Assembly: GCF_013122565.1 (NCBI RefSeq)
Contig: NZ_CP053258.1
Source: Escherichia coli
Lineage (GTDB): Bacteria; Pseudomonadota; Gammaproteobacteria; Enterobacterales; Enterobacteriaceae
Strand: one strand, 5' to 3'
Length of the DNA stretch: 64,000 nt
Part shown: piece after piece, positions 25,201 to 35,079 of the stretch
How the letters are laid out: each line of letters opens with the position of its first letter
Numbering within the stretch: position 1 is the first letter of the stretch
Position numbers: made by a program

Positions 25201-28200
25201 GTTTTTCTGCGCCTTCCAGCCCCACTTTTTTCAGCATCTGGTGCGCGATTTCCAGTCGCTGCATTTTCTCAACACCTGCCAGTTGCAGGCCGAATGCCAC
25301 GTTGTCCCGTACATTGCGCCACGGCAGCAGTCCTTCATTCTGAAAAACTACGCCACGCTCTGCTCCCGGTCCCTCAATGCCCTTACCCGCCAGTTGAATA
25401 CTGCCATGCTGATAAGGCACAAAACCGGCAATCAGATTCAGCAGGGTGGTTTTGCCGCAGCCGGACGGCCCCAGCACCACCAGTAGCTCGCCGCTTTCCA
25501 GCGTCAGGTTGATATCTTCCAGCGCCGGTTTGCCGCCATAATCGGCATAGAGATGAGAGATTTGCAGCATCTGCGCCTCCTTTTATTGCACGAAGCGCGA
25601 GGTAACATACTGGCTGTAATCATTCGCCACGGCCGGGACTTTGCCCTGCTCTTTCAAAAACTGCGCGGTGTCGATGATCGCTTTGTTCACCGGTCCGGTC
25701 AGTTCTGCCGTTTGTTGCTGCGGTGTCAGATAGGTATTCCCCTTCACCAGCCCCGGAACGTCACCTTCCGGCACGCCGCTTAAACGCGCCAGTTTGCTGA
25801 TGTTTTCCGGCTGTTTCAGCCACGCGTCAGGGTTAGCAATGTACGGTTGCTGAGCATCGATGGCGCTTTTGGCGAACGCTTTCACTACCTCAGGATGTTT
25901 CTCGGCAAAATCTTTGCGCACCACCCAGACATCCAGCGTTGGCGCGCCCCATTGCCCAACCTGTTCAGAATCGGTCAGTACCTTGCCGTCTTTTTCCAGG
26001 GCGTTAACCGCCGGCGCCCAGACATAAGCACCATCAATATCTCCCCGCTGCCAGGCGGCGATAATCGCGGGCGGCTGCAGGTTCACAATCTCCACTTGCC
26101 CAGGTTTTATGCCCCAGTGTTTCAGCGCCGCCAGCAGGCTGTAGTGGGTGGTAGAGATAAACGGTACGGCGATGCGTTTGCCAATCAGATCTTCCGGTTT
26201 GCTGATAGTTTTCTTTACCACCAGTGCTTCGGAGTTACCCAGTTTTGACGCCAGCAAGAAGACTTCAATCGGCACCTGTTGGCTGGCTGCAACCGCTAAC
26301 GGGCTGGAACCGAGGTTGCCGATTTGCACGTCGCCTGAAGCCAGCGCCCGCACGATGCTGGCTCCGCTGTCAAACTTACGCCAGTCCACGGTTGCTCCGC
26401 TTTCTTTAGCAAAGGTGTTGTCGGCCTGAGCCACTTTCGCCGGTTCGGCTGAGGTTTGATACGCCACGGTGACGTTCACCGCCTGTGCCTGAAAAGCGAT
26501 GAATGCCAGCGCGGCAAGAAGTGTGTTACGCGATGAAATTGCCATGATTGTCTGCTCCCCTGTCTTGTTATGGGAGCAGTATTTCGTTGCGGGTCAGTTT
26601 GATAAAGGAATTAAAAGGTCTTGTTAAGAACAAAGCGTTTTTAGAAAAAAATCGGCAATGGTTAGCGAGTTTGCGCATTTTGCGGTTTTGGCGAACGTAT
26701 CCCGCCGGTTCACAAGCCAGATAAGATGTGTGCGCTCCGGCAAATTATTGCCATTTTGTTACATCCATTCCATATCTGTCGCTGGTTGATTGCCAGCGCC
26801 GCGCCGTGATGCATGATAGGAGAATTAGATAATAAGAGAAGAAAAGTATGATTCGGGTAGTGCTGGTGGATGACCATGTGGTGGTGCGCTCTGGCTTCGC
26901 ACAATTACTCTCTCTGGAAGACGATCTGGAGGTCATTGGTCAGTACAGTAGTGCCGCGCAGGCATGGTCGGCATTAATCCGTGATGACGTCAATGTTGCC
27001 GTCATTGATATTGCCATGCCGGACGAAAACGGCCTCAGTTTGCTTAAGCGCCTGCGTGCACAAAAACCGCAATTTCGCGCCATTATTCTTAGCATTTATG
27101 ACGCGCCAACCTTTGTGCAAAGCGCGCTGGATGCCGGTGCCAGCGGGTATTTAACCAAACGCTGTGGGCCGGAAGAGTTAGTGCAGGCGGTGCGCTCGGT
27201 CGGGCTGGGCGGGCATTATCTCTGTGCCGATGCGATTCGGGCTTTACGCGGCGGCGGGCAACCCGCCCAGGCGCTGGAAATTCTCACCCCACGAGAACGT
27301 GAAGTGTTTGATTTACTGGTCAAAGGAGACAGCGTTAAAGAGATCGCCTTTAAACTCGAACTCAGTCATAAAACGGTACATGTGCATCGCGCCAATGTGC
27401 TGGGAAAACTGAACTGCCATAGCACCATTGAACTGGTACATTTTGCGCTCGACCACCATCTGCTGGCGGGGCATTAATGTCGCGCAATCTTCGTCATTGG
27501 GTGATTTCGCTGTTTATTGTGCTGGCCTGGGGAACCGGCTGGCTGATGCTGTGGACGCTCAGTTTTTATCTGACCAATAACGGTCAACAGGCGGCGCTGT
27601 TTCTCCCGCAGGGAGTTTATCTCGCCCTTGTTATTTTGCTCTCTCGCCGCTACTGGCCTGCGTTGGTACTCCCCCCTTTGCTGATGATGTTCTGGCTCCA
27701 TAGTGAACAGCTATTGAACGGTTATCTCATGCTGGCAACGCCGGTTATTAGCCTGTTTCCTGCCCTCCTTGCGCAAAACTTCTGGCACCGTTTTCCACTT
27801 TACTGGCAGCGTCTGACGTTGCTGTTAGCTACTGTCACGGCAGCTTCATTGTTGAATACCGCCCTGCTCTCCCCTTTTATGTCAGGCCCAATAATGCTGC
27901 CGGGTTTGACCTCATTTACCGGCGGCGTATTACTGACGCCGTTTGTCTATCTTATCTTTGAGTTTCTGCGCCAGCAGCATCGCTACCAGCTCCTGGGACT
28001 CGATACGCATAATCCCCCCTTGCGTACCTCTTTAATCATCTGGTGTAGCCTGTTTTTTATCATTGGTATCGGCACTCAGATGGTGCTGTCACCTGAAATT
28101 GAGCGTCTGCTGTTGATCGTGGTCTTTTTGCCCAATGTGGTGATGGCGTGGAAATTTGGCTGGCAAGGTGGCGTACTCTCCGGGCTTTTGGGCAGCATGA

Positions 28201-34200: not shown

Positions 34201-35079
34201 TGTCCGACACTGTGCTGGTGATGAATAAAGGTCACATCATGCAGATTGGCTCACCGCAGGATCTCTATCGTCAGCCAGCCTCCCGCTTTATGGCAAGTTT
34301 TATGGGCGACGCCAACCTGTTCCCGGCGAACTTTAGCGAAGAGTATGTCGATATCTACGGTTATCGCCTGCCGCGCGCGGCGCATTTCCCGGCGCAAGGT
34401 AGCGGCACCGTCGGCGTTCGCCCGGAAGCCATCACCTTAAGCAATCACGGCGAAGAGAGTCAGCGTTGTGTTATTCGCCATGTCGCCTACATGGGGCCGC
34501 AGTACGAAGTGACCGTAGAGTGGCATGGACAGGAGATTTTATTACAAGTAAACGCCACCCGTTTACAGCCCGATATTGGTGAGCACTATTACCTCGAAAT
34601 CCATCCTTACGGGATGTTTGTTTTAGCGGATGCGGCATAAAAATAGCACATAAACGGTCCCCATCTGTCTTGAGGGACCGTTCACCTGGTTAGGCTTCGG
34701 ACAACAATTATTCTCCAGTGTTATATACTATAGGGGGGTATGCATTGACATATAGCATACCCCCCTATAGTATATTGCATGCAGATGATGAGGTGCGAAA
34801 TGCCCAGTACTCCGGAAGAGAAGAAAAAGGTCCTTACTCGAGTTCGTCGTATTCGAGGGCAGATTGATGCTCTGGAACGGTCGCTGGAGAGTGATGCCGA
34901 ATGCCGTGCCATACTCCAACAGATCGCTGCCGTTCGGGGCGCGGCTAATGGGCTGATGGCAGAAGTGCTTGAAAGCCATATCCGGGAAACGTTTGACCGA
35001 AATGACTGCTACAGCCGCGAAGTCAGCCAATCCGTTGACGACACTATTGAACTGGTTCGTGCCTATCTTAAATAGCTGA

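Follow-up and report, generated by a model that had tools for sequence, protein, structure and literature searches.

What does the regulatory module that lies between tauA and frmR in some strains of Escherichia coli sense, and which genes does it control? In the 64-kb stretch of E. coli DNA analysed here (the window, to which all coordinates and strands refer), this interval holds six intact open reading frames (ORFs) in one orientation (26848-34640), encoding a response regulator, a membrane histidine kinase, a major facilitator superfamily (MFS) protein, and the binding protein, permease and ATPase of an ATP-binding cassette (ABC) importer (Table 1). The locus is E. coli O-island 20 (fusR, fusK, z0461 and afuABC), which is already known and has been studied experimentally; the fucose sensor FusKR and the sugar-phosphate importer AfuABC belong to separate published stories, although they lie in one conserved six-gene unit. 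The reading favoured here, to which a probability of about 0.6 is given on the basis of sequence comparisons, is that the island is a paralogue of the K-12 Uhp system and would activate its uhpC-like gene and afuABC in response to sugar phosphates.

As the MFS and AfuA genes overlap, the 84-bp spacer between the kinase and MFS genes is the only room for a regulated promoter. Alignment of 76 distinct versions of this spacer region showed blocks that exceed the flanking coding sequence in conservation, comprising a site resembling that of the cyclic AMP (cAMP) receptor protein (CRP) within the last kinase codons, a pseudo-palindromic box, a block at the -35 position and a -10 hexamer, followed 3′ by a conserved GGAG and ATG. 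All four promoter elements are present in 74 of the 76 spacers. The CRP-like block is conserved as TGTTAAC(C/T)TGCCCACA and shares 8 of 10 positions with the CRP consensus. In 70 of the 74 sequences the spacings are fixed, with 40.5 bp from the CRP-like centre to the box centre, 24 bp from the box centre to TCTCAT, 51 bp from the box centre to the -10 hexamer, and 91.5 bp from the CRP-like centre to the first base of the -10 hexamer. Transcription would start at about 29089-29091; if the start lies some 7 nt downstream of the -10 hexamer, the box falls at about -63 and the CRP-like site at about -103.5. For lack of a -35 hexamer, the kinase-MFS promoter was not flagged by a generic sigma-70 scan; it was seen only by cross-species alignment.

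The third codon positions of the kinase gene provide a separate measure of constraint on the CRP-like site. Of 508 six-codon windows along the gene, the seven most conserved all fall in codons 499-510 (28974-29006), which contain codons 501-506 over the CRP-like site, and third-position conservation there is 0.96 relative to a gene mean of 0.635. Synonymous sites are nearly invariant here across genera whose kinases are only 55% identical, and the location of the strongest synonymous-conservation peak at the CRP-like site argues for selection on the DNA itself. The box is similarly distinctive: the pattern CCAGG-N7-CTTAG occurs once in the window, with 0 occurrences expected by chance, and its place is taken in Rahnella by CTAGG...CCTAG and in three other genera (Buttiauxella, Erwinia and Pantoea) by a perfect palindrome, CCAGGAATAATTCCTGG, such that both half-sites co-vary across genera (CCAGG/CCTGG, CTAGG/CCTAG). 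The first-pass annotation of this DNA had proposed a search for UhpA-type sites upstream of both 29091, where the MFS ORF opens (the RefSeq start in identical genomes is 29103, with the GGAG 6 nt upstream), and 30404. The box is a candidate for the former, and no second box lies ahead of 30404; a separate promoter upstream of afuA was ruled out due to the gene overlap and the single occurrence of the box pattern.

Comparison with the K-12 uhpT promoter (PuhpT) indicates what kind of promoter this may be. From the CRP-like site to the -10 hexamer, a single 1-nt gap suffices to align the two promoters, and the four spacings listed above for the island (40.5, 24, 51 and 91.5 bp) correspond to 39.5, 25, 52 and 91.5 bp in K-12, each within 1 bp. 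The strong UhpA site of uhpT, CTAAG-N7-CCAGG, is the counterpart of the island box, the weak UhpA region, CCTGGA ... TCTCAGG, aligns with the island CCCGGA ... TCTCATCC block, and the site for CRP (also named catabolite activator protein, CAP) overlaps the end of the upstream gene in both. Published descriptions of uhpT place CRP binding upstream of a strong and a weak UhpA site. Work of the Kadner laboratory reportedly maps the CAP site of uhpT to -103.5 and its UhpA sites to -80 to -32, and the positions of about -103.5 and -63 in the island are those of the CAP site and the strong UhpA site. The island promoter appears, from this alignment, to have a UhpT-type target architecture with a CAP site and strong and weak UhpA sites, and this uhpT homology of the promoter that precedes the UhpC-like gene lends computational support to the Uhp-like logic put forward in the first-pass annotation, in which UhpC-like sensing would drive an ABC importer instead of UhpT. 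The predicted target differs from that in K-12, in which the Uhp system controls the UhpT antiporter. In addition, the predicted inducible promoter of the island sits before the sensor gene, unlike that of K-12 Uhp, placing the sensor within the regulated operon; its inclusion in the same transcript as afuABC would generate positive feedback.

The proteins encoded upstream of afuABC fit this comparison. The regulator is 48% identical to K-12 UhpA, with the recognition helix KTVHVHRAN identical in both, the MASE1 kinase aligns with UhpB over its full length and keeps the histidine box ELHD(E/D)IGQ, and the MFS protein is 53% identical to K-12 UhpC. The best NCBIfam matches of the regulator and kinase are the UhpA and UhpB models, while the MFS protein scores 587.7 bits against the UhpC subfamily model NF008661, above the 564-bit cutoff. 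As in K-12 uhpA/uhpB, the regulator and kinase genes overlap by 1 nt (TAATG). The trio had been described as UhpA/B/C-like with a kinase start overlapping the regulator stop, and both statements hold, the resemblance being that of paralogues. The MFS protein retains the equivalents of UhpT R46, K82 and R275 (R46, K82 and R266 in UhpC), and at the positions of D388 and K391 is like UhpC and unlike UhpT. Among the NCBIfam models it matched only the organophosphate family and other unrelated MFS models, with no match to a fucose-permease model. Together, the conserved arginines, the UhpC-like positions and the missing fucose-permease match suggest that a phosphorylated compound fits better than fucose as its ligand. 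No UhpT-type gene was found within the island by ORF listing or NCBIfam models, the genes downstream of the two-component pair being the UhpC-like gene and afuABC.

The importer itself is closely related to structures of known ligand specificity. The binding protein matches the glucose-6-phosphate (G6P)-bound AfuA of Actinobacillus pleuropneumoniae (PDB 4r72-4r75) with E 1e-168 and 8x1a with E 2e-173, is 76-79% identical to its two closest solved homologues, and is 92-97% identical to AfuA of Citrobacter species other than Citrobacter rodentium. All five ligand residues, S37, T150, H205, D206 and E229 (A. pleuropneumoniae numbering), are kept, of which H205, D206 and E229 hold the sugar and S37 and T150 hold the phosphate (Sit et al. 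2015). A fused two-domain permease and then an ATPase are encoded directly downstream. In the A. pleuropneumoniae and Citrobacter rodentium systems, AfuABC binds and imports G6P, fructose-6-phosphate (F6P) and sedoheptulose-7-phosphate (S7P), and it promotes colonisation by C. rodentium (Sit et al. 2015). Judged by sequence, the binding protein of the window is an AfuA orthologue, and by analogy the island system would transport G6P, F6P and S7P.

The same locus has been described in enterohaemorrhagic E. coli (EHEC). The kinase is identical to that of O157:H7 Sakai at 509 of 513 residues and the regulator at 208 of 209, and the tauA-frmR interval of Sakai holds these six genes as well (ECs_0418 to ECs_0413). 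The cassette is 98.8% identical to that of EDL933 (O-island 20, Z0457-Z0463). Genes, order and chromosomal site are the same in EHEC O-island 20 and in the window, the only difference being that a baboon commensal-type isolate (99.7%) resembles the window more closely than O157:H7 does. The first-pass annotation had recorded the gene layout correctly and overlooked this O-island 20/FusKR identity. In a transcriptome paper Z0462 is listed as fusK, Z0463 as fusR and Z0461 as a 'fucose transporter (optimal import)', and afuABC in O-island 20 is reported to adjoin the fucose-sensing FusKR (Sit et al. 2015). Published expression data from O157:H7 Sakai grown on glucose show that at glucose exhaustion ECs0415 (afuA) rises 37-fold and ECs0416 (encoding the MFS protein) approximately 12-fold, both within one expression cluster, with a transient rise of ECs0418 (the regulator). 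A joint rise of ECs0415 and ECs0416 is what a shared CRP-dependent promoter predicts.

Under the Uhp-paralogue reading, the regulator and kinase would be made from a weak promoter of their own. The UhpC-like MFS protein, without a partner transporter, would bind external sugar phosphate and signal to the MASE1 kinase, which would phosphorylate the regulator. We infer that the regulator then binds the CCAGG-N7-CTTAG box, approximately 63 bp upstream of the start, and a weaker site over the -35 region, and acts as an activator; CRP-cAMP bound approximately 103.5 bp upstream would co-activate, with the regulator, one transcript carrying the UhpC-like gene and afuABC. The predicted function is high-affinity, ATP-driven uptake of hexose and heptose phosphates, with an ABC importer in place of UhpT.

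Alternative readings were considered for both the importer and the promoter. Database names describe a ferric-iron ABC transporter: Sakai and RefSeq annotation use fbpC and 'periplasmic iron-binding protein', the ATPase matches an NCBIfam model named 'ferric ABC transporter ATP-binding protein', and AfuA retains distant similarity to FbpA/HitA-type iron proteins (E 1e-11 to 1e-13). The binding protein scores 564-579 bits against the AfuA structures, relative to about 50 bits against FbpA, HitA and SfuA, so that the clustering with ferric-binding proteins that had been raised as a challenge to its identification as AfuA was not seen; with the sugar ligands H205, D206 and E229 conserved, and sugar phosphate and not iron shown to be the transported substrate in A. 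pleuropneumoniae and C. rodentium (Sit et al. 2015), the ferric-iron reading is effectively refuted. It is unlikely that the palindrome and the TCTCATCC block serve another regulator, or act at the RNA level as a hairpin or attenuator in the kinase-MFS interval. The perfect palindromes of Buttiauxella (z -2.2) and Rahnella (z -5.9) fold well as RNA, but folding of the E. coli sequence is not better than that of shuffled controls (z -0.5), and in none of the three sequences folded is the palindrome followed by a U-run, on which grounds an intrinsic terminator was likewise rejected. Also against these readings, the imperfect pair CCAGG/CTTAG, found in 49 of the 74 sequences, is that of the uhpT strong site, and its distances to the CRP site and the -10 hexamer are fixed.

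The published model could instead be complete, with FusK sensing L-fucose directly, FusR repressing ler, z0461 and the fuc genes, Z0461 helping to import fucose, and afuABC a mere neighbour under CRP and RpoS control; this is considered rather unlikely. Reviews and later studies citing Pacheco 2012 relay that fucose stimulates FusK autophosphorylation and that FusKR represses ler and the LEE (locus of enterocyte effacement), a 2026 study found fucose-dependent LEE repression to be lost in a fusKR deletion, and Z0463 is RpoS-dependent. Set against this, Z0461 belongs to the organophosphate:phosphate antiporter family, with the UhpC-model score, phosphate-binding arginines and lack of a fucose-permease match described above; the six genes are linked in about 80 species; and the promoter, with its box upstream, a CRP site placed as in uhpT and no -35 hexamer, has the architecture of an activator and not of a repressor. 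The published FusR motif at ler contains at best one TTAAGG half-site that resembles the island box, as judged by eye, and is uninformative. Almost none of the approximately 80 species with linked genes is known to carry the LEE. Several points weigh against the Uhp-paralogue reading. The regulator scores 193 bits against the NCBIfam UhpA model (258-bit equivalog cutoff) and the kinase 377 bits against the UhpB model (408-bit equivalog cutoff), and identities to the K-12 Uhp proteins are only 34-53%, lowest for the kinase (34%). By these comparisons the regulator and kinase are UhpA and UhpB paralogues and not equivalog-level orthologues, and the signal could differ as a result. Reviews, and the transcriptome paper citing Pacheco 2012, relay that FusK is a fucose sensor and that Z0461 aids fucose import; the same transcriptome paper cites repression of z0461 by FusKR, a role opposite in sign to that proposed here and, with fucose sensing, the chief difficulty for it, although raised z0461 in a kinase deletion could, by analogy with UhpB, come from loss of phosphatase activity. 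In the literature searched there were no transcription start, footprint or induction data (including induction by G6P) for the island promoter, and no link of FusKR or Z0461 to afuABC regulation or to sugar-phosphate sensing.

The distribution of the genes bears on the age of the association. A genome-wide scan with an AfuA alignment returned 281 relatives, of which the best 80 were examined; all 80 are from Enterobacterales, including Citrobacter, Klebsiella, Raoultella, Enterobacter, Serratia, Buttiauxella, Rahnella, Erwinia, Pantoea and Yersinia. The order regulator-kinase-MFS-AfuA-AfuB-AfuC and its orientation are kept in all 80 loci wherever the contig is long enough, and, three loci apart, the MFS and AfuA genes are separated by -4 to +60 bp. 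The regulator-kinase pair is orthologous (71-91% identity) in about 80 Enterobacterales species. As in E. coli, a divergent tauA adjoins the regulator gene in at least 29 of the loci from Enterobacteriaceae (Citrobacter, Klebsiella, Raoultella, Enterobacter, Leclercia and others), which suggests that a place next to the tau operon is probably the ancestral state in this family and that most E. coli have lost or replaced the cluster. The description of the cluster as an accessory island is doubtful for the same reason. Matches to the kinase, permease or ATPase are fragmented, the kinase reads through, or the kinase-MFS spacer is 278-416 bp in a few loci (Leclercia adecarboxylata NCTC13032, Cedecea and two more, L016 and L077), which may reflect decay or insertions in some lineages.

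Within E. coli, the whole island is present in 518 of 5,426 complete genomes (about 10%), among them O157:H7, O145, porcine enterotoxigenic E. coli and the baboon isolate closest to the window. According to reviews, FusKR occurs in O157:H7 alone and may have come from Enterococcus; the distribution contradicts the former and is at odds with the latter. In the bovine strain ZYB39 the cassette adjoins tRNA-Sec (selC) and a tyrosine integrase (ZYB39 locus 4248-13923), indicating that the unit has also moved as a block within E. coli, while a search for plasmid-borne copies of the whole island found none. In 458 E. coli genomes, including the K-12 derivatives C600 and DH1, and in 32 plasmids there is only an 85.8%-identical afuB 3′ end and afuC, a separate and truncated copy located elsewhere in the genome that matches 33234-34640 (cassette query positions 6481-7887).

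AfuABC of the Pasteurellaceae shares the binding protein, fused permease, ATPase and ligand residues with the island, but in the two members checked (Actinobacillus arthritidis, with an AfuA 98% identical to that crystallised from A. pleuropneumoniae, and Basfia) the transporter genes stand alone without adjacent regulator, kinase or MFS genes, whereas in Enterobacterales it is always preceded by the regulator, kinase and UhpC-like genes. The first-pass annotation had placed a uhpABC-like module beside afuABC in Actinobacillus, which these loci contradict. Basfia (8001-10161 of two loci) has two tandem AfuA-like binding-protein genes ahead of the permease; this may point to a second substrate specificity, by analogy with the pyridoxal-phosphate-binding relative 6wce.

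The genes themselves are known EHEC biology, and their description as first stated adds nothing new. What is new is the linkage of the six genes across Enterobacterales, the tauA-side position, the Pasteurellaceae afuABC without the module, the PuhpT-like promoter, the recognition helix shared with UhpA and the phosphate-binding arginines of the MFS protein. It is an even call whether FusKR and Z0461 are primarily a Uhp-paralogous sugar-phosphate circuit with z0461-afuABC as its ancestral and conserved target, driven from the PuhpT-homologous promoter with CRP as co-activator, and encoded at an old Enterobacteriaceae locus beside tauABCD that about 10% of E. coli retain and not at a recent EHEC-specific acquisition; if so, the fucose response and LEE control of EHEC would have been added in that lineage, or would result from cross-talk or act indirectly. 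Should the regulator activate afuABC in response to sugar phosphates, the signal ascribed to a virulence-regulating sensor that is much cited would have to be examined again, and the reading of the UhpC-like protein as a fucose transporter would have to be given up. Since UhpA has the same recognition helix as the island regulator, cross-talk between the two would then become a specific issue in the use of G6P and possibly in fosfomycin uptake induced by G6P.

Table 1 Positions of the island genes, predicted regulatory elements and boundaries in the window
Feature	Position	Strand	Remarks
Response regulator, NarL/LuxR-type	26848-27477	+	FusR / Z0463 / ECs_0418 orthologue, UhpA paralogue
MASE1 membrane histidine kinase	27477-29018	+	FusK / Z0462 / ECs_0417 orthologue, UhpB paralogue
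UhpC-like MFS protein	29103-30407	+	Z0461 / ECs_0416 orthologue
AfuA, periplasmic sugar-phosphate binding protein	30404-31435	+	Start overlaps MFS stop (ATGA)
AfuB, fused two-domain ABC permease	31504-33582	+	Two permease-domain matches per protein; RefSeq start
AfuC, ABC ATPase, annotated fbpC	33594-34640	+	NCBIfam NF008513, 696 bits
CRP-like site TGTTAACTTGCCCACA	28979-28994		In kinase 3′ end; synonymous-site conservation, spacing
CCAGG-N7-CTTAG pseudo-palindrome	29019-29035		Predicted regulator site
CCCGGA ... TCTCATCC block	29040-29058	+	At -35 position, no TTGACA-like hexamer
Predicted -10 hexamer TATAGT	29078-29083	+	Conserved TA.A.T block, fixed spacing, 74/76 sequences
Sigma-70-like promoter candidate, regulator-kinase pair	26790-26817	+	TTGCCA-16-CATGAT; tentative, consensus scan
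Possible operon end	34602-34682	+	Tentative, terminator scan
Inserted DNA relative to empty tauA-frmR site	26684-34707		8,024 bp in place of 75 bp; blastn vs strain R12
Six-gene cassette core	26754-34676	+	7.9 kb, 97.4% identical next to selC in ZYB39

The island is flanked upstream by tauA (25583-26545, minus strand) and downstream by frmR (34779-35075). K-12 carries yaiS/yaiP/yaiO at this site, some strains have an empty tauA-frmR junction, and the inserted DNA occupies the same position as Sakai ECs_0413-0418. This boundary comparison agrees with the initial description of six co-oriented genes that replace the K-12 yaiS/yaiP/yaiO interval, whereas its term 'fused' for the sensor system and transporter is correct in the sense of operon adjacency and not of gene fusion. 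The cluster had also been called richer in G+C (GC) than its neighbours, which is true relative to frmRAB (0.538 vs 0.518) but not relative to the tau operon (0.568; whole window 0.523), and with the island lying between its two flanks, base composition gives no foreign mark. The promoter candidate for the regulator-kinase pair falls within the cassette core common to the selC copy. At the other end, the terminator scan showed two hairpins, one with a T-run at 34602-34626, within the final codons of afuC, and a GC-rich one at 34653-34682 that lacks a T-run. No Rfam family was matched across the whole window.

Two further features lie outside the six genes. A long near-perfect palindrome at 34723-34775 (TATAGGGGGGTATGC ... 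GCATACCCCCCTATA), just upstream of frmR, is kept in empty-site strains and is presumably the frmR operator or promoter region. An intact 987-aa ORF at 18567-21530 (minus strand), within a low-GC stretch (0.35-0.42), corresponds by size and position to yaiT, which is annotated as intact in Sakai.

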